From assembly GCF_963921235.1 (NCBI RefSeq), contig NC_086097.1, positions 25,112,001 through 25,176,000 of the forward strand: 64,000 nt of DNA, read 5' to 3'. Made by a program: the position numbers and the translations under genes. The notes under the pieces were generated by a model. It saw only the letters and a program-made list of their open reading frames with translations. It was not told the origin of the DNA and ran no database searches. Of the stretch, positions 830 to 64,000 are shown piece after piece. Each line of letters starts with the position of its first letter. Position 1 is the stretch's first letter. This DNA comes from Mobula hypostoma. Taxonomy: Eukaryota.

Positions 830-1470
830 CACAGGTTTGGTTATTTCACATTATGACACATTGTGCCCACTCTTGGAATATTACTTTCAGTTCTGATTGC
901 CTCATCATAGGAGGATATGGAAGCTTTAAAGAGAGTGTAGAGGAGGTTTGCCAGGACGCTGCCTATATTACAGATCATATCTTATGAGCGCAAACACAAG
1001 GAAATCTGCAGATGCTGGAATTTCAAGCAACACACATAAAAGTTGCTGGTGAACGCAGCAGGCCAGGCAGCTTCTCTAGGAAGAGGGTCTAGGAAGGGTC
1101 TCGGCCCGAAACATCAACTGTGCCTCTTTCTAGAGATGCTGCCTGGTCTACTGCGTTCACCAGCAACTTTTATATCTTATGAGGATAGGTTGAGAAAGCT
1201 AGGGCTTTTCTCTCTGGAGCGAAGGAGGATGAGGAGGTGACTTGAGATAGATGTACAAGATGATAAGAGGCATTGATCGAATAGATAGCCAGAGACTTTA
1301 TCTCATCCAGAAATGGCTAGTACAAGGACGCAAAATTTTAATGCAACTGAAGGGAAGTACTGGGGGGTGTCAGAGGTAAGTTCTTTACACAGAGAGTGGT
1401 GATGTCCTGCCAGGAGTGGTGGCATTGGCAGATACATCAGGGTCATTTAAGAAATTCATAGATAGGCACA
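830..1470 (+). mobile_element. CR1-like LINE 3' fragment (RT C-terminus), interrupted by a fold-back element
   Basis: Decayed PLLEYYFQF and YEDRLRKLGLFSLERRRMR motifs typical of the CR1 ORF2 end. Confidence 0.85.
989..1171. mobile_element. Penelope-terminus-derived mini fold-back element
   Basis: Inverted arms; 12-bp TSD ATATCTTATGAG at 977-988 and 1172-1183. Confidence 0.85.
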
Positions 1471-4319: not shown

Positions 4320-4501
4320 ACGACAGAGAACCTGCAGATGCTGGAAATCCAAACAGCACACACAAAATGCTGGAGGAATTCAGTAGACCAGGCAGCATCT
4401 ATGGGGTCCTGCTGAAGGGTCTCGTCCTGAAATGTTGACTGTACATTTTTTCATAGATGCAGCCTGGCCTGTTAGGTTCCTCCAGCATGTTATGTTTGTT
4501 G
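4320..4501. mobile_element. Penelope-terminus-derived mini fold-back element inside the CR1 3' UTR
   Basis: Inverted arms; probable TSD CTCATCATG (4311-4319) / CTCACCATG (4502-4510). Confidence 0.75.
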
Positions 4502-7067
4502 CTCACCATGGCTGATCCAATTTTCCTCTCGGCCCTAATCTCATGCCTTCTTTCCATATCTCTTCATGCCCGGATCAATCACAGATCTATCAACCTCTGC
4601 CTTAAATATACATAAAGATTTTGCCTCCACAACTGCCTGTGGCAAAGAATTCCACAGATTCACCACTCTCTGGCTAAAGAAATTCCTTCTCATCTCCATT
4701 CTAAAAGGATGCCCCTTGATTCTGAGGCTGTGTCCTCTGGTCTTAGACTGTCCCATCATAGGAAACATCCTCTCCACAACCATTCAGTCAAGGCCTTTCA
4801 CCATTCGATAGGGTTCAATGATGTCACTCCTCATTCTTCTGAATTCTGGTGAATACAGGCCCAGAGCTGACAAACACTCTTCATATAACCTGCCATTCAA
4901 TCCTGGAATCATTTTTGTGAACTTCCTTAGAACCCTCTCTAGTATCAGTACATCCTTTCTGAGATAAGGGGCCCAAACCTGCACACAATACTCTAAGTGA
5001 GGCCTCCCCAGTGCTTTAGAAACTTTCAACATTACATCCTTGCTTTTATATTCTAGTCCTCTTGAAATGAATGCTAACATTGCATTCGTCTGCCTCACCA
5101 CAGACATAACCTGCAAATTAACCTTTAGGAAATCCTGCACGAAGACTCCAAAGTCCCTTTGCACCTCAGTTTTTTTATATTGGAAAGTAGTCAACACTTT
5201 CATTTCTTCTACCAAAGTGCATGACTGTACACTTTCCAACACTGCATTCCAAATACCATTTCTTTGCTCATTCTCCTAATCTCAAAACAAACTGCCCCTC
5301 CACCTATATTCATATCGTCTGCAAACTTTGCAACAAAGCCATCAATTTCATCATCCAAATCATTGGTATATAACATAAAAAGAATCGGTCCCAACTCAGA
5401 CCCCTGTGGAACAACACTAGTCAGAGGCAGCCCTTTATTCTCATTCCTTGCCTCTTACCAATCAGCCACTGCTTTGTCCATGCTAGAATCTTTCCGGTAA
5501 TACCATGGGCTTGTGGCTTTGTAAGCAGCCTCATGTGTGGTACGTTGTCAAAGGCCTTCTGAAAATCCAAGTACACAACATCAACCAATTCTCCTTTGTT
5601 TTTCCGGCTTGTTACTTCCTCAAAGAATTCCAACAGATTTGTTAAGTAAGATTTTCCCATGAGGAAACCATGCTGTCTATGGTCTATTTTATCGTATGCC
5701 TCCAAGTACCATAAGACCTCATCCTTAATAATCTATTCCAACATCTTCCCAACCATTGACGTCAGACTAACTAGCCTATAGTTTCCTTTATTCTGCCTCT
5801 CTCCCTTCTTGAAGAATGGAGAGATATTTGTAATGTTCTAGTTTTCCAGAACCATTTCAGAACCTAGTGATTCTTAAAAGATCATTATTAATGCCTCCAC
5901 AATCATTATAGCCAGTTCTTTCAGAACTCTGGAGTGTTGTCTGACACCATCTGGTCCAGGTAACTTATCTACCTTCAGACCTTTCAGTTTCCCAAGAACC
6001 TTCTCTCCAGTTATGGTAACTTCACACACTTCATACCCCCGACACCTGGAACTTCCACCATACTGCTAGTTTCTTCCATGGTGAAGACTCTTATTTAGCT
6101 CATCCGCTATTTCATTGTTCCCCATCTCCAGCATAGTTTTCCAGCAGTCCGATATCCACTCTCGCCTCTTTGTGTATCTGAAGAAGCTTTTGGTATCTGC
6201 TTACTTGTGTATTCCATCTCTACCTACTTAATGACCTGTTTAGTTGCCTTCAGTTGGCTTTTAAAAGCTTCCCAATGATATAACTTTCCAGTAATATTTG
6301 CTCTATGATATGCCCTCTCTTTGGCTTTTATTTCTCTTGTTAGCCATGGTTGTGTCATCTTTCCTTTGGAATACTACTTCCTCTTTGGGATGTATATTTC
6401 CTGTGCCTTCTGAATTGCTTCCAGAAATTCCAACCATTCTATCATACCTGCCAGTGTTCTTTTCCAATCAATTCTGGCCAATTCCTCTTTCATGCCTCTG
6501 TAATTCCCTTTACTCCATGGTAGTACTGTTGCATCTGACTTTAGCTTCTCCTTCTCAAATTTCAAGGTGAATTTGATCATATTATGATCACTTGCCCCGA
6601 ATGGTTCTTTTCTATAGTCAATTCTGGTTCATTGCACAACACCCAATCCAGAATAGCTGATCCCCTAGTGGGCTCAACCATGAGCTGCTCTAAAAAGCCA
6701 TCTTATAGGCACTCTAGAAATTCCCCCTCCTGTAATGCAGCACCAGCCTGATTTTCCAATCTACTTGCATATTGAAATCCCCCATGCTTGTAACAATACC
6801 CTTTTGGTATGCATTTTCTATTTCCTGTTGTAATTTGTGGGCCACATCCTTACTACTGTTTGGGGGTTCTGTCAATTCCTAGCAGGGTCTGTTTAAACCC
6901 TTGCAGTACCTTAGCTCTATCCACAATGATCCAACACCTTCCAACCCTGTGTCACCTCTGTTTAATGATTTGTTTTCATTTTTTACCAACAAAGCAATGC
7001 CGCCCCCTATGCCTTCCTGCCTATCCTTCTGATACAATATGTATCCTTGGACATTAAGCTTCCAGCA

Positions 7068-11169: not shown

Positions 11170-11770
11170 CCAGGATAGCTGATCTGCCCTCCAACACTAG
11201 GTTGCCCTCCTACCCAAGATCCACAAACCTGACTGTCCGGGTAGGACCATTATTTCTGCCTGCTCCTGTCCAACTGAACTTGTATCCACATACCTCGACT
11301 CCATTCTATCCCCCTTGGTTCAGTCACTTCTTACTTACATCCATAACACTTCACATGCTCTTGACCCCCATAACAACTTTCAATTTCCTGGCCCTGACCG
11401 CTTCATTTTCACCAGTTGCTATACACATCTATCCCCTATCCAGAAGGCCTTAAAGCTCTCTGCTCTCTCCTGACAACAGACACAACTTATTCCCCTCTAC
11501 CACCACCCTCATCCATCTATTAGAACTGGTCCTCAACCTAAACAATTTCTCTTTTGGCTCCTCCCACTTTCTCCAATCTCAAGGTGCAGCCATGAGCACC
11601 CACATGGACCCCAGCTATGCTTATCTTTTCGTTGGTTATATCGAACAGCCCATGTTCGGAGCCTTTCCTGGTAATGCTCCCCAACTCTTTCTGCGTTATA
11701 TTAACAATTGCATTGGTGTTGCTTCATGCGCTCATGCTGAGCTCATCAGTTTCCTCAACTTTGCCTCTGG
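11170..11770 (+). mobile_element. Old Penelope-like element RT fragment
   Basis: G(A)AMSTHMDPSYAYLFVG...LFLRYINNCIG matches PLE RT G.AMG...PSYA.LF.G / RYIDD motifs. Confidence 0.8.
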
Positions 11771-13179: not shown

Positions 13180-13351
13180 CACTCACAACACGCTGGAGGA
13201 ACTCAGCAGGTCGGGTAGCATCCGTGGAAAAGATCGGCCCCGATACGTCGACCGATCTTTTCCACGGATGCTGCCCGACCTGCTGAGTTCCTCCAGCGTG
13301 TTGTGAGTGTTGCTTTGACCCCAACATCTGCAGATTATTTTGTGCTTATGA
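13180..13351. mobile_element. Penelope-terminus-derived mini fold-back element (divergent subfamily)
   Basis: Near-perfect ~58-bp inverted arms; 13-bp TSD TCACCCACAGGTT at 13167-13179 and 13352-13364. Confidence 0.88.
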
Positions 13352-20248: not shown

Positions 20249-20474
20249 TAACACACACGAAATGCTGGAGGAACTCAGCAAGATAGGCAACATCTATGCA
20301 AGAGAGTAAACAATTGAGGTTTCGGTCCGAGACCCTTCATCAGACCTGTTGAAGGGTCTCAGCCCGAAATGTCGACTGTTTATCCATTTCTGTCATGCTG
20401 CCTGGCCTGCTGATTTCCTCTACCGTTTTGTGTGTGTTGCTTTCAATTTCCAGCATCTGCAGATTTTTTCACGT
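20249..20474. mobile_element. Penelope-terminus-derived mini fold-back element
   Basis: Inverted arms with apex near 20345; TSD AAAAGATTATCTG (20236-20248) / AAAAGATAATTTG (20475-20487). Confidence 0.8.
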
Positions 20475-22579: not shown

Positions 22580-22798
22580 GCAACACACATCAAAGTTGCT
22601 GGTGAACGCAGCAGGCCAGGCAGCATCTGTAGGAAGAGGTGCAGTCGACATTTCAGGCCGAGACCCTTCGTCATGAAGGATCTCGGCCTGAAACATCGAC
22701 TGCGCCTCTTCCTACAGATGCTGCCTGGCCTGCAGCGTTCACCAGCAACTTTGATGTGTGTTGCTTGAATTTCCAGCATCTGCAGAATTCCTGTTGTT
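22580..22798. mobile_element. Penelope-terminus-derived mini fold-back element
   Basis: ~92-bp inverted arms with apex near 22672; perfect 16-bp TSD TGCGATAAAAATTCAT at 22564-22579 and 22799-22814. Confidence 0.92.
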
Positions 22799-23271: not shown

Positions 23272-23476
23272 AACAAACAAAAGAAAAACTGCAAATGCTG
23301 GATCCAAGCAACACACACAAAATACTGGAGGAACTCAGCAGGTCAGGCAGCATCAATCAAAAAGAGTAAATAGTCAACGTTTTGGGCCGAGACCGTTCAT
23401 CAGGTCCTGATGAAACATCTCAGCCTGAAACATTCACTGTTCACTCTTTTCCAAAGATGCTGCCTGACATGCTAAG
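23272..23476. mobile_element. Penelope-terminus-derived mini fold-back element inside a SINE tail
   Basis: Apex near 23405; TSD TATTTCTCTGTAT (23259-23271) / TATTTCACTGTAT (23477-23489). Confidence 0.8.
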
Positions 23477-24389
23477 TATTTCACTGTATGTTTTGATGTA
23501 CATATGACAAATAAATCTAATCTTTAGAACAGGGACAAAGTGAAGACGGGGGAAACAGCAACAGGTAAAGATCTTTCAATCATTTCAAAGGAATAACAAT
23601 CTTTTTTTCAATGAGTGAAAAGGAATTCATTTTTTTTTCTACATGATTGATTTGGAATATGGGATACTGTGATCATATTACTGTGATTTAAATGTAATGT
23701 AATTCGTATTATTTACTTGTATCCTTATGAATTTTGTATTTGTATTCATGCAATTTATATAATATCAATAAAAATTTTGAAAAAAGGAAAAGGAATAACA
23801 AATAGGCTTTGCAGGCTGTGAGCAAATTTTGTTCTGCGCCTTGGAGTGCGAGCTGTAAGGACTGACTTAATCAATTCCTGGGGAAAGCTTTCTTCCAAGA
23901 GAGACTGAATACATATTTTTTTCTTTACTTATTGGAGCTCAGAAGACTGAGAGATCATCACAGTAAGACAGAGGTTTTGAGGAGGGTTGAGCAGGTAGGA
24001 ATTAAAAGGATGTTTTCACAGGCTGAAGAATTCAGAGGTTTGGAGAATGGTGTCAAAATAAGACAATTACAATGAGGAGAAATTTCTTTACAGTTGCAAA
24101 AATATCTGGAGATCTCTTCCAAAGAATCCAGTGTGAAGTGGCAGGTACAATTGGTAGATGGAGATCTCGCATAAAATTCTCTCCACTTAAGTTTCAGCTG
24201 CCCTCCTCTCCCTTCCCAGTTTGTTCAGATTATAAATGAACTCACTCATCTTAGTTTCCAGTTCAACCAACTGTATTTTCTTGATGCACGTCCTCACAGA
24301 CTTATTATCTCTACTCAACACATCCTTTTCTTTTTGTTTATTTAGGACTTTACCTTAGTTGGCAGAGAAACTTAACATTTCAGCAATAC

Positions 24390-24930
24390 ACACTCAGATT
24401 GGAGGAGTAACACCTCATATTCTGTCCGAGTAACCTCCAAGCTGATGGCATGATCACTGATTTCTCTAACTTCCAATGATTCCTCCCTTCTCTCCTTCTC
24501 TCTTTTACTATTTACCTAATCTGGTTTCCCTCTCATTCCTTTCCTTTCCACACCTGTCCATCGCCTCCCTCTGGTGCCTCTCCTCCACTTTCTTCCATTG
24601 TCTACTCTCCTCTCCTATCAGATTCCTTCTTCTTCAGTCCTTTTCCACCTATCACCTGCCAGCTCCTCACTTCACCCTCACACCCCCCAACCCAATAACC
24701 TTGCCCCTCACCTGATCTCACCTATCATCGGTCGGCTTCTACTTCTTCCTCTCCCTCCATCTTCTTATTTTAGTTTCTGCCCCCTTCCTTTCCAGTCCTG
24801 ATGAAGGATCTCAAGCAAGAATGTCAACTGTTTACTTCCCTCCATAAATGTTGCCTGACTTGATGAATTTTCCAACACTTTGTGTCCATTGCTCAAAATT
24901 TCCAGCATTTGCAGAATCTCTTGTGTTTAA
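24390..24930 (+). mobile_element. Old Penelope-like 3' end (ORF end, pyrimidine-rich UTR, degenerate hammerhead, terminus)
   Basis: LRLEE*HLIFC..NLQADG homologous to the 53720-53803 ORF end; CAGTCCTGATGAAGG at ~24793. Confidence 0.8.
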
Positions 24931-25910: not shown

Positions 25911-27427
25911 TGTCGTCGCCGTTAGGTCGCATCTGGAATTTCCAGTTGGCGGATGATTTCCCTTGATGCCACTCTGTCCCAACACTTATCGACGACATCC
26001 CTAGTCTTGTCCAGCTTGGTCCAATCCTCAATGTTACCTAGCCACACACATAAAAATTGCTGGTGAACGCAGCAGGCCAGGCAGCATCTCTAGGAAGAGG
26101 TACAGTTGACATTTTGGGCCGAGACCCTTCATCAGGGCTAACTGAAAGAAGAGGTAGTAAGAGATTTGAAAGTGGGAGGGGGAGGGGAGATCCGAAATGA
26201 TAGGAGAAGACAGTCGACTGTACCTCTTCCTATAGATGCTGCCAGGCCTGCTGTAAACACGAGTTTACATTACAGCAGCAATTTTTATGTGTGTTGCTTG
26301 AAATTCCAGCATCTGCAGATTTCCTCGTGTTTGTGTTTTCCAGCCACGTTGTTCTTTGCCTTCCTCTTCCTTTCTTTCCCTCCACCTTTCCATATAGCAA
26401 GAACGACAAGATGTTATCTCTCCGCGTAACGTGTCCACAATAAGCAACTTTTAACTTCATGATCTTCTCCAGCAGTATCCATGCTCTATTAACTTCGGAC
26501 AAAAACCTCTCATTTGAAACTTTCTCTACCCAGCTGATCTTCAACCTTCGTCGATAGCACCACATTTCAAAAGCCTTAATTCATTTCATGTCATCCTTCT
26601 TCAGGGTCCATGTTTCTGACCCATACCTCAGCACCGACCATACATAACACTCGAGGAAATGGATTCTACTTTGGATGTCTACCTTCCAATTGCATAGTAG
26701 ATCTTGTAGCTTCATGAACTGGGTCTTAGCTATACCTATTCTCCTTCTGATCTCAACTTCACATCTCCCGTCATCTGTCAGACAATTGCCAAGAAAATCA
26801 AACTTTCGCACCTGTTCAATGTCTTGTCCATTCACTTGTAATGATACCATCATGAATGAGTCTTTAGTGTTTGTTTTGCTTACCTCCATTGACTTTGTTT
26901 TCTTAGGGTTGATTTTTAGTCCGTATTCAAGGCTTTCCCATTCACTTTATTCAGCATAATTTGCAGTTCACATTCGCTGTCAGCTAACAATACGGTGTCG
27001 TTCGCATACCTGTGTTATCCACCTTCTGGCCTCCAATTGAAATACCTGTCTCCTGATGATCGCATTCCCGAAAAATCCATTCTCTGTAGAGGTTGAACAA
27101 ATCTGGCCAGCCAACACAGCCTTGCCTTACGGCTCGTTTAATACCTGCCCATGGTGACAGCTCATTTTCTACCCTGACCGCTGCTTTCTGTTTCCAATAT
27201 AAGTTCCTTATTATTTGCACATTCTCCCATCCCAGATTGTACTTGTTCAGCACCTCTATTACTTTCTCGTGTCTTACTTTATCAAAAGCCTTTTCATAGT
27301 CAATAAAGCATAAGTAGATGGTCTTTTGTGCCTCAATGCATCTCTCCATGTTGTTTCTCAACGCAAATATCCCTTCCCTTGTTCCTGAGCCCTTACGAAA
27401 ACCAAACGGTGTTTCTTCAATTTCATC
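25911..27427 (-). mobile_element. 5'-truncated RTE-clade LINE (RT region)
   Basis: FGFRKGSGTREGIF..YLCFIDYEKAFDKV..VRQGC; EIRRRIGIAK..LRYGSETWTL; TSD GCTGGAAATCTTT (25898-25910) / GCTGAAAATCTTT (27428-27440). Confidence 0.92.
26046..26333. mobile_element. Penelope-terminus fold-back element nested in the RTE
   Basis: Inverted PLE termini; degenerate TSD TGTTACCTAGCCAC / TGTTTTCCAGCCAC. Confidence 0.8.
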
Positions 27428-38206: not shown

Positions 38207-39230
38207 TTGTCAAGGAGGCCCTGGAGGAATGGCGACACTGGCTGGAGGAGGCAGAGCATCCATTCTTGGTCTGGACAGATCACAAGAAACTCTCCTATAT
38301 TCAGGATGCTAAGAGACTCAACTCTCGTCAAGCCAGGTAGGCTCTTTTCTTCACATGGTTCAATTTCGTCCTCACTTATCGTCCCAGCAGCAAGAATACA
38401 AAGGCCGACACTCTCTCCCAGCAGTTCGATAGATCTAAGGACAATGCCAATCCAGAGCCCATTCTTCCTCGCTCGTGTATCGCTGCTCCGGTGATCTGGG
38501 GAATAGAGGCAGAGGTGAGGGCTGCCCAAAAATCAGATCCAGGCCCAGATGGGTGACCTCCCAACCGGCTGTTCGTCCTTGCTGTGGTGTATTCCAAAGT
38601 GTTGGAATGGGGCCACTCCTCCCGTCTGGTTGGACATCCGGGAATTCAACAGACTCAGGAGTTTATAAAGAGACAATTTTGGGGGCCATCTATGTCCCAG
38701 GACGTCCACAACTTTGTATCTGCCTGTCCCACCCGCGCTCGGAACAAGATATCACGCTGGCGTCCTGCGGGTCTGTTATGTCCACTGCCTGTGCCCCACC
38801 AGCCCTGGTCCCACCTCTCAGTAGATTTTATCACTGGTCTGTTCCCATCTAATGGAAACACCACCATTTTGGTCATTGTGGATCGATTTTCCAAGGCTGC
38901 CCACGTCATTGCCCTCCCCAAGCTCCCATCAGCTCGTGAGACTGCCACACTCATGGTTCAACATGTGGTCAGGCTCCATGGGTTTCCTCAAGACATAGTG
39001 TCTGATCGTAGACCACAGTTCACTTCCCGCTTTTGGAAGGCTTTCTGCTCTGTTGTAGGAGTCACGACCAGCCTCTCAACTGGCTTCTACCCCCAATCTA
39101 ATGGCCAGACTGACAGAGTGAATGAGGAGTTGGAGACAACCCTGCGCTATCTTGCCTCTTCCAAGCCCACGTCCTGGAGTTCCCATATGGTTGGGGCAGA
39201 GATCGTCCACAATAATCTCCAGTCGTCCTC
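38207..39230 (+). pseudogene. Ty3/Gypsy (sushi-like) pol remnant: RNase H C-terminus and integrase
   Basis: [27 protein letters not shown] zinc-binding region; SVDFITGL, IVSDRRPQF, PQSNGQTDR core; in-frame stops near 38338 and 38555. Confidence 0.92.
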
Positions 39231-39605
39231 CACTGTCGCCGGCAGCCCATTCCATGCACTCACCACTCTGCGTAAAAAACCTACCCCTGACATCTCCTCT
39301 GTACCTTCTCCCAAGCACCTTAAACCTGTGCCCTCTTGTGTCAGCCATTTCAGCCCTGGGAAAAAGCCTCTGACTATCCACACGATCAATGCCTCTCATC
39401 ATCTTATACAACTCTATCAGGTCACCTCTCATCCTCCATCACTCCAAGGCTAAGTTCACTCAACCTGTCTTCATAAGGCATGCTCCTCAATCCAGGCAAT
39501 GTCCTTGTAAATCTCCTCTGCACCCTTTCTATGGTTTCCACATCCTTCCTATAGTGAGGCAACCAGAACTGAGCACAGTACTCCAAGTGGGGTCTGACCA
39601 GGTAT
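39231..39605 (-). mobile_element. CR1-like 3' fragment truncating the Gypsy integrase
   Basis: MRGDLIELYKMMRGIDRVD..TRGHRFKV motif. Confidence 0.85.
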
Positions 39606-40529
39606 TCATCAACCTTTTTGATTTTCCCCCATGTTACACTTCAACTCATCCCAATGAGTGCAGTTTTGCCCTACTATCTGTATGTCCTCCCTCACAGTCT
39701 CACTAGACAATGCATCGACTTCTATACCAACTGCTCCATTCTCAGCCTATCCCTCTGTCAAGTTAGCTTAACTCCCCTACCAAGAGTTCTGGTAAACCTG
39801 TCCATCAGGAAAACACAAACGATTAACAGAATTAAATTAGCTATTTAAACTGTTGTTTATTAATTTGAAGAATATGTTTGGTGAATATTCTGATAAAGGT
39901 TTGGGAGGGCTGTGCCATGCTGACCTTGCTCTGTGCATTGTCAAGACCGTGACAATTTGCTTAGTATTACTATATGTGACCTGTATGCTATGAATTGTTA
40001 TATATACAGAAATTGCTGGGTCAGACCAGGAAAAGAATTGCAACTGTTTGGGCTCCTATTGATCTTGGTTAGATCAGACTTTAACTTTACGCTTCAGTAG
40101 ATCCCCCTGCTTCCAACTACCATCGTCGTGTCACTTCAGTTAACCTCTCCACGCATCATTTTGCAGACTCTCTGTGCCCTCCTTGCGGCTCGCATTCTCT
40201 GATTATGTCTTGGTGCTTTTTAAACATTTTCTTTAGAGATGTTGGTATCTGCCCTTGAGAAGATGGTGCAACACAAAAACAAAAATCTGGAGGAATGCAG
40301 AGGGTCAGGCAGCATCTGTGGAGGGAAATGGACTGTCGATATTTCCGATCGACCCTTCATTTGAACTCAAGAAAGCGACGTCTGCTGCACAACCTCAATG
40401 GCTTCTTGAGTTCCAGAATTGAGACCAGGGGAGGCTGAAGGCGCAGCGAAATTTTCTGATCCTTAAAACTATACTCACCAAATAACATCACACTGGGTAT
40501 CTGTAACTTTATATAACTGTCTGTTTGTG

Positions 40530-46483: not shown

Positions 46484-47121
46484 ATATCCTGAAAAGGGAG
46501 GGTGAGCAGCCAGAGGTCGTGGTACATATTGGTAACAACGGCATAGGTAGAAAAAGGATGGAGGTCCTGAAAGCAGAACACAGAGAGTTAAGAAGGAAGC
46601 TGAGAAGCAGGACCTCAAAGATAGTAATCTCAGTATTGCTGCCTTTGTCACGTGACAGTGAGTACAGGAATAGAGTGAGGTGGAGGATAAATGCGTGGCT
46701 GAAGAAATGGAGCTAGGGGCAGGGTTTCAGATTTTTGGATCATTGGGACCTCTTCAGGGGCAGGTGTTGTTGCACGGGGCGACTGAGGAGAACCCAAGTG
46801 CAGGACACCGGTACGTCGACTGAGTTGGGGATGCTGGCGTAGACGTGAACGTAGAACAGCAAACCACAAGGAGACAGGATCTACAGGGACTATCTTGAAA
46901 CTAGAGCAGAACTTGGAACTAAACTTAAAACTAACGGTTCTAAGCAGATGAGAGAACTAAGTATCACACAAGAATAGACCAAAAAACTGGCAACCTGTGT
47001 AGTAACGCCATCGTACTTACTTCACAGTCTCTGATGCAAACCAGGTGTACCGTAATCAAGCAACACACATCAAAGTTGCTGGTGAACGTAGCAGGCCAGG
47101 CAGCATCTATAGGAAGAGGTG

Positions 47122-47158
47122 CAGTCGACGTTTCAGGCCGAGACCCTTCGTCAGGACT
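47122..47158 (-). ncRNA. Minimal type I hammerhead ribozyme motif (core intact)
   Basis: AGTC-CTGACGA-AGGGTCTCGGCCT-GAAA-CGTC^GACT: helix I AGUC/GACU, CUGANGA and GAAA boxes, palindromic ACGU helix III, GUC triplet. Confidence 0.8.
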
Positions 47159-49323
47159 AACTGAAGGAAGAGTTACTAAGAGATTTGAAAGTGGGAAGGG
47201 GAGGGGGAGATCCGAAATGATAGGAGAAGACAGGAGGGGGAGGGATGGAGCCAAGAGCTGGAGAGGTGATTGGCAAAAGGGGATACGAGAGGATCATGGG
47301 ACAGGAGGCCCAGGGAGAGGAAGGAAAATTGGTGGGGGGGGGGGACCCAGAGAGTGGGCAAGGGGTATAGTCAGAGGGACAGAGAGAGAAAAAGGAGAGA
47401 GAGAGAAAGAATGTGTGTATAAAAATAAATAACGGATGGGGTACGAGGGGGAGGTGGGGCATTAGCGGAAGTCAGAGAAGTCAATGTTTATGCCATCAGG
47501 TTGGAGGCTACCCAGATGGAATATAAGGTATTGTTCCTTCAACCTGAGTGTGACTTCATCTTCACAGTAGAGGAGGCCATGGATAGACACGTCAGAATGG
47601 GAATGGGATGTGGAATTAAAATGTGTGGCCACTGGGAGATCCTGCTTTCTCTGGCGGACAGAGCGTAGGTGTTCAGCAAAACGGTCTCCCAGTCTGCGTG
47701 GGGTCTCGCCAATATATAGAAGGCCACATCGGGAGCACTGGACGCAGTATATCACCCCAGCTGACTCACCGGTGAAGTGTCGCCTCACCTGGAAGGACTG
47801 TCTGGGGTCCTGAATGGTGGTGAGGGAGGAAGTGTAAGGGCATGTGTAGCACTTGTTCCGTTTACAAGGATAAGTGCCAGGAGGGAGATCAGTGGGGAGG
47901 GATGGGGGGGGGACGAGTGGACGAGGGAGTCGCGTAGGGAGCAAGTCCTGCGGAAAGCAGAGGGGGGGGGAGGGAAAGACGTGCTTAGTGGTGGGATCCC
48001 GTTGGAGGTGGCAGAAGTTACGGAGAATAATATGTTGGACCCGGAGGCTGGTGGGGTGGTAGGTGAGGACCAGGGGAACCCCATTCCTAGTGGGGTGGCG
48101 GGAGGATCGAGTGAGAGCAGATGTACGTCAAATGGGGGAGATGCGTTTGAGAGCAGAGTTGATGGTGGAGGAAGGGAAGCCCCTTTCTTTAAAAAAGGAG
48201 GACATATCCCTCGTCCTGGAATGAAAAGCCTCATCCTGAGAGCAGATGTGGCGGAGACGGAGGAATTGCGAGAAGGGGATGGCATTTTTGCAAGAGACAG
48301 GGTGAGAAGGGGAATAGTCCAGATAGCTGTGTGAGTCAGTAGGCTTATAGTAGACATCAGTGGATAAGCTGTCTCCAGAGATAGAGACAGAAAGATCTAG
48401 AAAGGGGAGGGAGGACCCCACTAGGAATAGGGTTCCCCTGGTCCTCACCTACCACCCCACCAGCCTCCGGGTCCAACATATTATTCTCCGTAACTTCCGC
48501 CACCTCCAACGGGATCCCACCACTAAGCACATCTTTCCCTCCCCCCCTCTCTCTGCTTTCCGCAGGGATCGCTCCCTACGCGACTCCCTTGTCCATTCGT
48601 ACCCCCCATCCCTCCCCACTTATCCGTGTAAGCGGAACAAGTGCTACATATGCCCTTACACTTCCTCCCTTACCACCATTCAGGGCCCCAGACAGTCCTT
48701 CCAGGTGAGGCAACACTTCACCTGTCAGTCGGCTGGGGTGATATACTGCGTCCGGTGCTCCCGATGTGGCCTTCTATACATTGGCGAGACCCCACGCAGA
48801 CTGGGAGACCATTTTGCTGAACACCTACGCTCTGTCCACCAGAGAAAGCAGGATCTCCCAGTGGCCACACATTTTAATTCCACATCCCATTCACATTCTG
48901 ACATGTCTATCCACGGCCTCCTCTACTGTGAAGATGAAGCCACACTCAGGTTGGAGGAACAACACCTTATATTTCTTCTGGGTAGCTTCCAACCTGATGG
49001 CATAAACATTAGCTTCTCTAACTTCCGCTAATGCCCCACCTCCCCCTTGTACCCCATCCGCTATTTATTTTTATACACACATTCTTTCCCTCACTCTCCT
49101 TTTTCTCCCTCTGTCCCTCTGACTATACCTCTTGCCCATCCTCTGGGTCCCCCCCCCTTTTCCTTCTCCCTGGGCCTCCTGTCCCATGATCCTCTCATAT
49201 CCCCTTTGCCAATCACCTGTCCGACTCTTGGCTCCATCCCTCCCCGTCCTGTCTTCTCCTATCATTTTGGATCTCCCTCTCCCCCTCCCACTTTCAAATC
49301 TCTTACTAACTCTTCCTTCAGTT

Positions 49324-49360
49324 AGTCCTGACGAAGGGTCTCGGGCTGAGACGTCGACTG
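49324..49360 (+). ncRNA. Hammerhead ribozyme motif, GAAA box mutated to GAGA
   Basis: AGTC-CTGACGA-AGGGTCTCGGGCT-GAGA-CGTC-GACTG. Confidence 0.65.
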
Positions 49361-50350
49361 TACCTCTTCATAGAGATGCTACCTGGCCTGCTGCGTTCAC
49401 CAGCAACTTTGATGTGTGTTGCTTGAATTTCCAGCATCTGCAGAATTCCTCTTGTGTACCGTAATTAAGTAAACCAGCAGCAATTGGAAATCTAATGGCT
49501 GAAATTAGGGCATAATCAGGGAGAAAGGAGCATTAAAGGGGAACAACCAAACAGAACCATGACAGATGTGACCTGTACAAAAAGGACGGGTTGCACTTGA
49601 ATTCGAGGGGGACCAATATCCTGGTGGGGAGGTTTGCTAATGCTATTGGGGAGGGTTTAAACTAGATTTGCAGCGGGGTGGGAACTGAACTGAAGAAGCG
49701 GAGGATGGGGAGGTTGAAGCACAAGTAGAGACGGCTTGTAGGGAGTTTGTGAGGAAGTTTATGCAGATGTTAGAGCAAAGATGCACTCAGCCTGATAGTT
49801 TGAGAGGTGTCTATTTTAATATAAGAAGAATCATAAACGAGGTGGATGAACTTAGATCGTGGAACTATGACATTGTGGCCATTCCAGAGACTTGGATGTC
49901 TCGGGAGCAGTAATGGCTGCTTAGTGTGCCAGACTTTGGATGTTTCAAAAAGAACAGAAAGGGAGGCAAAAGAGCTGGGGGTGTGGCATTGCTAATCAGG
50001 GATAGTGGCAGGGCTACAGAAAAGGAGGAAATCATGGAGGCATGATCTACTGAGTTAGTGTGGGTGAAAGTCAGAAACAGGAAAGGGGCAATAACTCTAC
50101 CACAGCATTGGAGAGGGATTGGAGCAGACAAGTTAGGAAGGCGTTTAATTGGAGTAAGGGGAAATATGAAGCTATCAGGCAGGAGCTTGGGAGCATAAAT
50201 TGGGAGCAGATGTTCTCAGAGAAATGCACAGCAGAAATGTGGCATATGTTCAGGGAACGTTTGCATGGAGTTGCACATAGGTATGTTCCATTGAGGTAGG
50301 GAGAGGATGGTAGATTTTCAACAGCCTTTGTACAACATGGTTCCTATACC

Positions 50351-52490
50351 CTACCATCCTTTCCCTGTCTCATTGGAAAGTACCTACACAGAACGCCACA
50401 CAAATATCCCCTGAACTTCTGCCACATTTCTGCTGTACATTTCCCTGAGAACATCTGCTCCCAATCTATGCTTCCAAGCTCCTGCCTGATAGCTTCATAT
50501 TTCTCCTTACTCCAATTAAATGCTTTCCTAACTCGTCTGCTCCAATCCCTCTCCAATGCTATGGTAAAGGAGATAGAATTGTGATCACTATCTCCAAAAT
50601 GCTCTCCCACTGAGAGACCTAACACCTGACCAGGTTCATTTCCCAATACCAGATCAAGTACAGCCTCTCCTCCTATAGGCTTATCTACATATTGTGTCAG
50701 GAAACCTTCCTGATCACACCTAATAAACTCCACCCCATCTATACCCCTTGCTCTAGGGAGATGCCAATCAATATTGGGGAAATTAAAATCTCCCATTGTG
50801 ACAACCCTGTTATTACTGCACCATTCCAGAATCTGTCTCCCTATCTGCCCCTCGATGTCCCTGTTACTATTGGGCGGTCAATAAGAAACACCCAGTAGAG
50901 TTATTGACCCCTTCCTGTTTCGAACTTCCACCCACAGAGGTTCAGTAGATAATCCCTCCATGACTTCCTCCTTTTCTGCAGCTGAGACACCACCTTTGAT
51001 CAACAGTGCCACGCCCCCACCTCTTTTGACCCTTTCCCTGTCCTTTCTGAAACATCTAAAGCCTGGCACTCTAAGTAGCCATTCTGCCCCTGAGCCATCC
51101 AAGTCTCTGTAATGGCCACTACATCATAGCTCCAAGTACTGATCCACGCTCTAAACTCATCCGCTTTGTTCATGATACTCCTTGCGTTAAAATAGATACA
51201 TCTCAAACCATCAGTCTGAGTGCATCCCTTCTCCATCACCCACCTATCCTCCCTCTCACACTGCCTACGAGTTTTCCCTATTTGTGGCCAACCACCCCCT
51301 CCTCCGATTCGTCAGTATGGTTCCCATCCCCAGCAATTCTAGTTTAAACTCTCCCCAAAAGCCTTAGCAAACCTCTCTGCCAGGATATTGGTCTCCCTCG
51401 GATTCAAGTGCAACCCATACTAATGGTACAGGTCACGCCTGCCCCAAAAGAGGTCCCAATGATCCAGAAATCCGAATCCCTCCCCCCGCTCCAATCTCTC
51501 AGCCACACATTTATCCTCCACCTCACTCTATTCCTATACTCACTGTCGCATGATACAAGCAGTAATCCCGAGATTACTATCCTTGTGGTCCTGCTTCTCA
51601 ACTTCTTTCCTAACTCCCTGTAGTCTGTTTTCAGGACCTCCTTCCTATGTTGTTGGAACCAATATGAACCACGACCTCTGGCTGTTCACCTTCCCACTTC
51701 AGGATATCGTGGACGCGATCAGAAACATCCCGGACCTTGGCACCTGGGAGGCAAACTACCATCTGTGTTTCTTTCCTGAGTCCACAGAATCACTTGTCTG
51801 ACCCCCTAACTATAGAGTCCCTTATCACTGCTGCCATCTTCTTCTTTTCCCTGCCGTTCTGAGCCACAGGGCCAGACTTTATGCCACTGTTGCTTCCCCC
51901 AGATAGGTCCCCCCCCCCCAACAGTACTCAAGCGGGAGTACTTACTTTTAAGGGGACCAGCCACAGGGATACTCTCTAGCATGTGACTCTTGCCCTTCCC
52001 TCTCCTGACTGTTACCCACTTATCTGTCTCCCAAGGCCCCGGTGTGACTACTTGCCTGTAGCTCCTATCTATCAGCTCCTCACTTTCCCTGACCAGTCAA
52101 AGGTCATCAAGCTGAAACTCCAGTTCTCTAACCCAGTCCCTAAGGAGCTGCAGCTTGGCGCACTTGACACAGATGTGGCCATCCGGGAGCCTGGGTATCT
52201 CCTGGACATCCCACATCTGACACCCAGTACCGGAGTTCTGTCCTCACAGACATACTTCCTGCTCCTATTCTTCACAAGTAACTTACCTCGCCTTGACCTG
52301 TTATCACCGAAGCCCTGTGAACCAAAGCCCTCTCTATAAAGCTGTCTTCTTTTTAAATTCTTCCCGCCGGTCTAACTCGCTGACATCTACATGCCTCTGC
52401 TGTCTGTCTCGATCAAACTGCTGAAAGAAAAATGCTCTCCTTTTAAATTCTTCCCACCGAACTAATTCGTTGATGTCCACGCACCTGCAC
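50351..52490 (-). mobile_element. 5' part of a CR1-like LINE (UTR, ORF1 esterase, APE endonuclease)
   Basis: YFNARSIMNK..VVAITETW; MGDFNFPNIDW..LDLVL..GDSDHNSISF. Confidence 0.92.
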
Positions 52491-52792
52491 AGTTATGCCT
52501 TGTGGGAAGTGGTTCATTTGGTACGTCAAATTTGAAGACAGAATATACTATTAATGGTAAGACTCTTGGCAGTGTGGAGGATCTGAGAGATCTTAGGGTC
52601 CATGTCCATAGGACACTCAAAGCTGCTGAGCAGGTTGACAAACAACACGTTAAGAAGGCATATGGTGTGTTGGCATTCATCAACCGTGGGATTGAGTTCA
52701 AGAGCCGTGAAGTAATGATACAGCTATATAAGACCTTGGTCAGGCCCCATTTGGAGTACTGTGTTCAGTTCTGGTCACCTCACTACAGGAAG

Positions 52793-54193
52793 CTCGTTGA
52801 CTTTATTAACTTTGCCTCCAACTTTCACCCTGCCCTCAAGTTTACCTGGTCCATTTCCGACACCTCCCTCCCCTTTCTAGATCTCTCTGTCTCTGGAGAC
52901 AGCTTATCCACTGATGTCTACTATAAGCCTACTGACTCGCACAGCTATCTGGACTATTCCTCTTCTCACCCTGTCTCTTGCAAAAACGCCATCCCCTTCT
53001 CGCAATTCCTCTGTCTCCGCCGCATCTGCTCTCAGGATGAGGCTTTTCATTCTAGGACGAGGGAGATGTCTTCCTTTTTTAAAGAAAGGGGCTTCCCTTC
53101 CTCCACTATCAATTCTGCTCTTAAACTCATCTCCCCCATTTCACGTACATCTGCTCTCACTCCATCCTCCCGCCACCCCACTAGGAATAGGGTTCCCCTG
53201 GTCCTCACCTACCACCCCACCAGCCTCTGGGTCCAACATATTATTCTCCGTAACTTCCGCCACCTCCAACGGGATCCCACCACTAAGCACATCTTTCCCT
53301 CCCCCCCCGTTTTCCGCAGGGATCGCTCCCTACGCGACTCCCTTGTCCATTCGTCCCCCTCATCCTTCCCCACTGATCTCCCTCCTGGCACTTATCCGTG
53401 TAAGCGGAACAAGTGCTACACATGCCCTTACACTTCCTCCCTTACCACCATTCAGGGCCCCAAACCGTCCTTCCAGGTGAGGCAACACTTCACCTGTGAG
53501 TCGGCTGGGGTGATATACTGCGTCTGGTGCTCCCGATGTTGCCTTTTATATATTGGCGAGACCCCACGCAGACTGGGAGACCACTTTGCTGAACACCTAC
53601 GCTCTGTCTGCCAGAGAAAGCAGGATCTCCCAGTGGCCACACATTTTAATTCCACGTCCCATTCCCATTCTGACATGTCTATCCACGGCCTCCTCTACTG
53701 TAAAGATGAAGCCACACTCAGGTTGGAGGAACAACACCTTATATTCCGTCTGGGTAGCCTCCAACCTGATGGCGTGAACATCGACTTCTCTAACTTCTGC
53801 TAATGCCCCACCTCCCCCTCGTACCCCATCTGTTATTTATTTTTATACACACATTCTTTCTCTCACTCTCCTTTTTCTCTCTCTGTCCCTCTGAATATAC
53901 CCCTTGCCCATCCTCTGGGTTCCGCCCTCATCTTGTCTTTCTTCCTGGACCTCCTGTCCCATGATCCTCTCATATCCCTTTTGCCAATCACCTGTCCAGC
54001 TCTTGGCTCCATCCCTCCCCCTCCTGTCTTTTCCTATCATTTTGGATCTCCCCCTCCCCCTCCAACTTTCAAATCTCTTACTTACTCTTCCTTCAGTTAG
54101 TCCTGACGAAGGGTCTCGGCCTGAAACATCGACTGTACCTCTTCCTAGAGATGCTACCTGGCCTGCTGCATTCACCAGCAACTTTGATGTGTG
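52793..54193 (+). mobile_element. 5'-truncated Penelope-like element (RT C-terminus, GIY-YIG endonuclease, 3' terminus)
   Basis: LPFLDL..TDVYYKPTDSHSYL; GVIYCVWCSRC.LLYIGET; 13-bp TSD TCACTACAGGAAG at 52780-52792 and 54194-54206. Confidence 0.95.
54099..54135 (+). ncRNA. Hammerhead ribozyme motif (GUC changed to AUC, probable CpG decay)
   Basis: AGTC-CTGACGA-AGGGTCTCGGCCT-GAAA-CATC-GACTG. Confidence 0.68.
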
Positions 54194-62989: not shown

Positions 62990-63322
62990 TTCAGTAGGTT
63001 GTGGAATTAGTTCAGAATTGTGGTGAGTGAGGATATCCATACATGATATCCTGATTCATGAGCCTGATGGCAGTAGAGCAATAAGTGTTCTTGCACCTGG
63101 TGGTGTGGAACCCAAGGCAACTGTATTTTCTGCCCAGTTATATTAGTGAGAAGAGAGCATGGCCTGGATGGTAGGAGTCCTTGATTATGGATGTTGCTTT
63201 CTTGTGGCAGCAAGTCCATGTAGATGTGCTCAGTGGAGGAGAGGGCTTTCCCTGTGATGGACTGGGCTTTATCCACCACTTTCTGTTGTCTTTTCCATTC
63301 CTGGGCTTTGGTGTTTCCATAC
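62990..63322 (-). mobile_element. Rex1/Babar-like 3' fragment
   Basis: KKATSIIKDSYHPGHALFSL motif. Confidence 0.7.
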
Positions 63323-63424
63323 CACTACTACTACTATTACTATTACTACTATTACTATGACTACTACTACTACTATTACTACTACTACTACTACAACTAC
63401 TATTACTACTACTACTACTACTAC
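63323..63424. repeat. Imperfect (TAC/TAT)n trinucleotide microsatellite, ~34 units, forming the RTE 3' tail
   Basis: Direct reading; lies just downstream of the minus-strand RTE stop codon. Confidence 0.97.
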
Positions 63425-64000
63425 GTCCACTCAGGCCTAGGGGCCGTGTCGGGCATGATGACGGACTCTCCACTTCTCCCTCTCCCTCATCAGTGTGTTC
63501 AGTTCATCTACATTAGCTACGCCGCTGTCTTCTAGGAGCGTGTTGACCATAGTCTTGGAAGGGTGCCCAAGGTTCATCCTCCCGTGCTTGGGCTCCCATA
63601 TGATGACTAGGCTGGCAGGTAGCTCAGGGTGGCGTAGACAGTGCCCCACTAGTTGCAGTCTTCTCGCCTCGATTTTAGCGGAGAGCATCGGTAAGTTGTT
63701 ATAGAGCTCAACGTTCGTCATGTGCTGTTGCCAACTGACATCAAGAGCCATCCGGAGCATTCGTGTATAGCAACCATCTAGAGACTTTCGCATCATCTTG
63801 GTGAGTGTCCACGTCTCGCATCCGTACATGAGAATGGACTCTTTGACTGCTATGAAAATCCTCTTTTTAAGTCCTCTGGTCAGGTTTGACTTCCCGATTT
63901 CCTTCATGTCGTTCATAGCCCTCCACGCCAGCGCCTTCCGTATCTTTATGTCCTTCTCTGGACTCATCATTCTTGATCCGAGGTACTTGTAGTCAAAGAC
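63425..64000 (-). mobile_element. RTE-clade LINE 3' end, continuing beyond the window
   Basis: KYLGS..DIKIRKALAW..ESILMYGCETWTL..RMLRMAL..RRLQLVGHCLR motifs. Confidence 0.9.

Follow-up and report, generated by a model that had tools for sequence, protein, structure and literature searches.

The motif at 47122-47158, on the minus strand of the 64-kb stretch of Mobula hypostoma DNA analysed here (the window), has the letters of a minimal type I hammerhead of Penelope-like elements (PLEs), with a palindromic helix III that would form only in a dimer. We are confident that it derives from the hammerhead of the terminal repeat (pLTR) of an abundant Neptune-like PLE, and that this particular copy is a passive relic of an insertion. 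The coordinates of the motif, of the insertion that carries it and of the related copies are given in Table 1.

Table 1. Features of the hammerhead motif, its host insertion and other PLE copies in the window
Feature	Position	Strand	Remarks
Helix I, 5' strand	47158-47155	minus	
CUGACGA box	47154-47148	minus	
Extra A (between 9 and 10.1)	47147	minus	
Helix II	47146-47143 with 47138-47135	minus	
GAAA box	47134-47131	minus	
Palindrome ACGU (helix III)	47131-47128	minus	
GUC cleavage triplet	47129-47127	minus	
Helix I, 3' strand	47126-47123	minus	
Minimal type I hammerhead motif, whole	47122..47158	minus	descriptor, covariance model, folding
Pyrimidine-rich tract just 5' of helix I	47159..47200	minus	AG motifs at its end; from sequence
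Target-site duplication, left	47045..47056		12 bp
Arm 1 of inverted PLE insertion	47057..48414	minus	5'-truncated; ends ~103 nt past helix I start; no tail
Broken PLE ORF remnant	47465..48414	minus	RT thumb, C-x4-C-x2-C linker, GIY-YIG with CCHH residues
Arm 2 of inverted PLE insertion	48415..49453	plus	head-to-head; has 3' tail; hammerhead 49324-49360
Tail, ~33 nt	49421..49453	plus	on arm 2 only
Target-site duplication, right	49454..49465		12 bp
Independent 5'-truncated copy, same family	52793..54193	plus	13-bp duplication; inside CR1-like RT; hammerhead 54099-54135
Older-subfamily copy	24389..24926	plus	endonuclease end through decayed hammerhead (24794) and tail
Short fold-back	989..1171		12-bp duplication; arms end at positions 40 and 10
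Short fold-back	4325..4503		arms end at ~46 and 2
Short fold-back	13180..13351		13-bp duplication; arms end at ~35 and 18
Short fold-back	20250..20466		arms end at positions 5 and 4
Short fold-back	22580..22798		16-bp duplication; two arms end in CUGANGA box
Short fold-back	23277..23477		arms end at helix I positions 4 and 2
Fold-back	26041..26330		arms end at -74 and ~30

Read from 47158 to 47122, the minus strand carries the hammerhead letters that an initial annotation had claimed, and the cut that it predicted between 47127 and 47126 agrees with the layout of boxes and helices (positions below are numbered from h1, the first helix I base at 47158, which places the predicted cut at h32/h33). 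Helix I comprises four Watson-Crick pairs, or five if G-U is counted. The short helix II is present but is better read as a bulged A followed by 4 bp closed by G10.1-U11.1; the palindromic, loop-less helix III stands as described, and its pairing in a double hammerhead is sterically consistent. The relatives carry G10.1-C11.1 in 20 out of 20 cases, and the G-U of the ray copy closes helix II more weakly. We considered U11.1 as mere CpG decay of this copy and rejected it: by depth, U accounts for 70-76% and C for 24-30% in two read-contig sets, so that U11.1 is a subfamily state.

A strict descriptor of the minimal hammerhead (helices plus palindrome), applied to the two strands of the 64 kb, matched 47122-47158 and nothing else, and it matched none of 200 dinucleotide shuffles. 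A covariance model trained solely on 20 motifs from outside the window placed it at the top of 13 window matches with E<=2 (33.9 bits, E 6e-7). The loose pattern of the two boxes alone is hardly enriched (13 seen versus 8.6 expected, with 10 of 100 shuffles equally high), and the search of Rfam that the annotation had recommended gave 12 matches with E<=5, none of them to a hammerhead family; the Rfam microRNA-precursor matches in the window correspond to fold-back insertions. The boxes, helices and palindrome bear out the assignment to the PLE minimal type I class (Cervera and De la Pena 2014).

The motif is also found where it should be in other PLE families. We gathered 90 loci encoding relatives, mostly at 40-50% protein identity, of which 55 had an endonuclease end plus 500 nt of flank and were eligible, the other 35 being dropped. 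Within 1 kb of the endonuclease end, the strict descriptor matched in sense at 18 of the 55 loci and never in antisense. The covariance model found a sense match in 42 of the 55 (27 of the 39 outside its training set), mostly 70-125 nt past the stop, with no match in the remaining 13 and no antisense match in any. Across 20 distinct related motifs, the columns that never vary hold the catalytic letters, the extra A and G10.1-C11.1. Base pairing is kept in 153 of 160 pair cells, 54 of them with two-sided changes (0/500 shuffles as high), a rate that is partly built in because the descriptor by which the 20 motifs were chosen calls for 3 bp in helix I and in helix II; it demands neither position, strand, the extra A nor G10.1-C11.1. 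Two-sided changes occur at all four helix I pairs, and the 15.2-16.2 palindrome itself co-varies (CG, UA, GC). The catalytic boxes are conserved across PLE families, the opposite of one of the two outcomes that the annotation had named together as grounds for abandoning its reading.

The inserted copies behave differently from the lineage. Among 18 aligned window copies, the catalytic boxes show no excess conservation: the cells that differ from the majority number 14/144 at core non-CpG sites, 32/293 at other non-CpG sites of the ribozyme, 45/429 in the downstream block, 49/174 at CpG sites and 78/249 in the linker h38-51, counts that include the junction bases of truncated arms. This is neutral decay, alike inside and outside the core, which places selection on the source lineage rather than on the insertions. 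Among the related loci, bins labelled as bacteria (CBDDTI01, CBDAUV01 and FXLX01; L081-L089 and L091-L097) hold many PLE copies of animal type, probably host DNA. One near full-length relative (L006, 100-170 and 2787-2833) opens with a fold-back junction ~8 nt before its 5' hammerhead, with the ORF next; its 3' hammerhead-like motif differs in sequence.

The element that hosts the motif is recognizable from the ORF remnant of arm 1, which has one in-frame stop near 48128 and is 84% identical to a relative (P0001) over 221 aa. Of the RT it keeps only the 3' part, and its GIY-YIG remnant falls just under the Pfam cut-off (E 0.00036). Relatives of the protein carry PF00078, PF26215 and PF01541, and in their endonuclease C, C and H are invariant and the second H almost so. 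A query with a sister copy gave 279 relatives, the closest being proteins from rays and sharks (93% for Mobula hypostoma, ~80% for Hypanus, 58-67% for carpet sharks). A C-x2-5-C-x2-C linker between RT and EN marks Neptune and is shared with Nematis, according to PMC8557442; we call the ray element Neptune-like from its C-x4-C-x2-C linker. Neither the DNA patterns of the ray family, searched in viral and prokaryotic genome contigs, nor the PLE protein alignment, searched in viral contigs, gave a match. A zebra shark protein model (P0008) reads through the 3' UTR, and its end peptide is consistent with a translated copy of this hammerhead motif, a hint that sharks share it.

In three window arms the hammerhead lies ~300 nt past the endonuclease stop, in sense. 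The arm that contains 47122-47158 is joined head-to-head to a second one at 91% identity. The motifs at 47122 and 49324, which had been counted as separate copies, are in fact the two arms of one 2.4-kb insertion event, since they lie inside a single 12-bp duplication. On a possible origin of these arms from different RNA templates, a comparison over 999 columns counted 38, 22 and 32 private differences, with minority letters common to both arms at four sites. The pyrimidine-rich tract before helix I resembles a 3' splice site or an initiator. On the plus strand, 49304-49323 shows a branch-point-like TACTAAC, a pyrimidine tract and AG immediately before helix I, a layout that recalls the D. 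virilis intron ending at helix I; AG before helix I is mostly absent in the related loci inspected.

We propose that a very abundant Neptune-like PLE of a ray bears this minimal hammerhead in its terminal repeat, where selection on RNA would maintain it in source elements. By analogy with the Anolis element PAc, two RNAs, brought together by a predicted dimer of the element protein, would pair through the ACGU palindrome, likely with help from that protein; cleavage after GUC would follow, at some stage separate from cDNA synthesis. Target-primed reverse transcription would use mostly uncut RNA and begin at either of two internal sites 3' of the ribozyme, as we infer from the two 3' ends of the family and from 5' ends that lie upstream of the cut (see below). 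The head-to-head structure is observed; priming on both target strands would produce it, by joining two 5'-truncated cDNAs inside one duplication. The 47122 copy would then be one such arm, best preserved by chance, lacking both a promoter-side repeat and an intact partner.

Whether this copy can cut is a separate matter. The isolated 37-mer folds no better than its own shuffles (z -0.78), and the best predicted folds are non-catalytic both for the monomer (-10.7 kcal/mol vs -6.7 for the hammerhead form) and for the dimer (-29.7 vs -10.9 kcal/mol), which would fit low activity and also no catalysis at all. Metazoan minimal hammerheads are described as not cutting as monomers and cutting weakly as dimers (PMC4209133), and the PAc motif as cutting only with its own protein, the cut being unneeded for insertion in vitro (PMC11167929). 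By this analogy the family motif probably cuts solely as a protein-assisted dimer. The 47122 copy is most likely inert, given the lack of a monomer helix III, the non-catalytic predicted folds, the missing partner, pairing with the antisense arm, the lack of a host exon among the frames searched (both considered below) and the published behaviour of monomers and of PAc.

The same folds favour another reading, namely that the hammerhead shape is kept, at least here, as a non-cutting cis-element serving in protein docking, as a transcription start or as a splice signal. The 5' ends of the insertions avoid the cut site, PAc ribozyme mutants leave insertion in vitro unaffected (PMC11167929) and Naiad elements are described as thriving without a hammerhead (PMC8557442). 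However, the columns invariant in the 20 distant motifs are precisely the catalytic letters, with the extra A and G10.1-C11.1, the co-variation of the palindrome is needed by a cutting dimer but not by a docking site, and PAc does cut, with a C3G/G8C rescue (PMC11167929). We regard a non-cutting element as unlikely.

Less likely still, and to our minds very improbable, is the suggestion that the 47122 copy is transcribed within a host intron and cleaves the pre-mRNA. All its catalytic letters are intact, and the family is plentiful in two contig sets taken by guess as RNA (10,649 and 7,665 contigs); yet these contigs represent the family as a whole and their RNA origin is itself a guess. The minus-strand host gene that had been supposed did not materialize: a Pfam search of 210 mostly unrepeated frames of at least 45 aa, from which short exons could escape, gave no convincing host-gene match, the cut-off being passed only by RT and a LINE-associated ALKBH8_N piece. 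In a minus-strand read-through RNA, the antisense arm would be transcribed before the hammerhead arm, and in the folded model 35 of the 37 ribozyme bases pair with arm 2 in a ~1-kb hairpin. The window holds no intact same-strand partner with which this copy could form a dimer, and the published monomers failed to cleave (PMC4209133) while PAc needs its protein (PMC11167929). The intronic role that the annotation had entertained is not upheld. Finally, a chance match to a short consensus, for which the weak enrichment of the loose pattern and the silence of Rfam might speak, is refuted by the shuffles of the strict descriptor, by the co-variation of pairs and by the occurrence of the motif at the corresponding position in 42 of 55 related loci with none in antisense, and deserves practically no credence.

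The annotation had also listed variants at 49324, 54099, ~24793 and ~26103. All exist, the last two at 24794 and 26103-26139, but every one is damaged: GAGA replaces GAAA at 49324, the palindrome is broken at 54099 and AGAA or AAAA stands in place of GAAA at 24794 and 26139. Its estimate of more than ten ribozyme-derived motifs in 64 kb agrees with the 13 covariance-model matches and with the 31 rows, a few being weak, that a profile of the terminus gave. Related sequence does occur in the fold-backs, as it had stated, but mostly as fragments of the motif, because most arms break off inside helix I or the CUGANGA box. These small fold-backs (at ~1.0, 4.3, 13.2, 20.3, 22.6, 23.3 and 26.0 kb) have the same inverted structure as the 47-49 kb insertion with shorter arms, and clear duplications of 12-16 bp in three cases. 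That they form one amplified MITE-like family was considered and rejected, as their junctions and subfamily letters differ.

Several other stretches of the window deserve mention. A 445-aa open frame (52466-53803, plus strand) joins a piece of CR1-like RT in frame to the inserted PLE, through an accident of the insertion that carries the 13-bp duplication. An older PLE reverse-transcriptase fragment (11207-11765, plus strand; ~48% to P0033) has no matched endonuclease or terminus alongside. A 298-aa frame at 38557-39453 (plus strand) with Integrase_H2C2 and rve domains is a piece of LTR retroelement, a 476-bp stretch within CR1-like sequence (50095-50569) matches its own reverse complement at 84%, and a trinucleotide-like low-complexity run at 63224-63535 gives poly-Tyr and poly-Ser frames.

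The ends of the insertions bear on how they were made. At the 3' side, contigs of two runs stop near 49421 and 49455 (loose ends), and the two ray 3' ends match the two internal RT start sites reported for PAc (PMC11167929). Folding lent no support to a conserved hairpin in the region where the RT starts (z between -1.3 and +0.45 over 4 copies). In both contig sets a joint at 49356-49429 goes back 74 nt, so that at some place in these genomes the terminus has undergone a short head-to-tail duplication.

At the 5' side, we set by eye the ends of 28 arms in 17 insertions, small and hand-curated numbers from which a tail-only piece (25878), a doubtful piece (9949), a copy with an unclear end (40264-40363) and two weak rows were left out. 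Eleven ends lie in h2-h10 and as many in h11-h85, with 2 more in the next 100 nt upstream and 4 beyond, and only 2 of the 28 lie within 3 nt of the predicted cut. Counting one end per insertion, 8 of 14 short insertions end within 9 nt (simulated P 0/20,000, 0.0003 and 0.0002 with the three nulls used). Among 14 inverted partner arms from related families, 4 stop between h-5 and h7 (L016, L063, L080, L082); of the others, L006 is a borderline case, one stops at h43 and eight continue further upstream. Seven loci picked by the pattern downstream of the ribozyme (one repeating L089) include three fold-backs with an arm end at h-4 to h3. Inverted microhomology alone as what fixes the junctions found no support, h2-h10 being no richer in it than h11-h40; its potential is somewhat poorer upstream.

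One possible, still doubtful, explanation for short insertions ending at the 5' edge of the hammerhead is that the template RNA itself begins there, so that reverse transcription runs off its end. Starts ~100 and ~135 nt from the RNA 5' end would then yield "strong-stop" cDNAs, and two of these joined head-to-head would produce the miniature fold-backs. Around h1 the sequence fits an initiator consensus. Against an RNA starting at helix I, transcription in D. virilis is reported to start 46 nt plus a 75-nt intron upstream (PMC2377424), the intron ending at helix I (PMC4209133). Candidate alternatives for the pile-up are that the RT falls off in the U/Y-rich tract upstream, or that it is blocked by a bound protein or by a helix I paired in trans. 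The literature covered, at the level of titles and abstract openings and with most subscription papers outside, reports neither a pile-up of 5' ends nor a PLE hammerhead from rays.

The ray motif shares most features of the PLE minimal hammerheads set out in PMC4209133, a class restated in PMC6155905: type I with a short helix I, CUGANGA plus one extra base, a purine at 10.1 that closes helix II, GAAA, a palindromic 15.2-16.2, NUH and a U/Y-rich 5' flank, in a terminal repeat after RT-EN, with opposite-strand pairs and many solo truncated copies. It differs in its short helix II (4 bp) and in 11.1, which is mostly U in the ray, although G-U at 11.1 is also seen in published members (cichlid, Latimeria 1, Xenopus 1 and Lottia in Fig. 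S3 of PMC4209133); cartilaginous fish are absent from the consulted portion of that figure's alignment. PAc, a Poseidon element of Anolis (Frangieh et al. 2024, PMC11167929), is alike in having a ribozyme upstream of two 3' termini ~35 nt apart (the tail), in using both target strands and in taking apparently uncut RNA as template. Unlike PAc, the ray element has a linker of the Neptune/Nematis type rather than that of Poseidon, and no ORF start is established inside its motif.

Inverted PLE insertions with a 5'-truncated inverted arm, a single duplication and a 30-40 nt tail at one end have been described before (Craig et al. 2021, PMC8557442; Arkhipova et al. 2013, PMC3846280). Many ray events differ in being only 180-290 bp long, with junctions piled up at the 5' edge of the ribozyme, which the available text of these two papers does not mention. 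Non-LTR retrozymes (Li, Clavereau and Pollet, bioRxiv 10.64898/2026.07.22.740005) likewise derive type I hammerheads from PLE terminal repeats, and tandem ones are reported there in the one chondrichthyan sampled. They are head-to-tail tandem units with complete ribozymes, whereas the ray copies are mostly broken and occur singly or head-to-head, the latter being the arrangement of every multi-arm copy in the window.

The ray family is thus added to the PLE hammerhead class described in 2014. If the run-off explanation is true, transcripts of Neptune-like elements, from rays to distant animals, would have the ribozyme as their 5' leader, and the genome would preserve a record both of where PLE transcription starts and of uncut RNA as the template. 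If the pile-up of 5' ends proves genome-wide, it would offer a simple test of the start of the template RNA and of cut usage, and would account for the many miniature hairpin repeats in these genomes.
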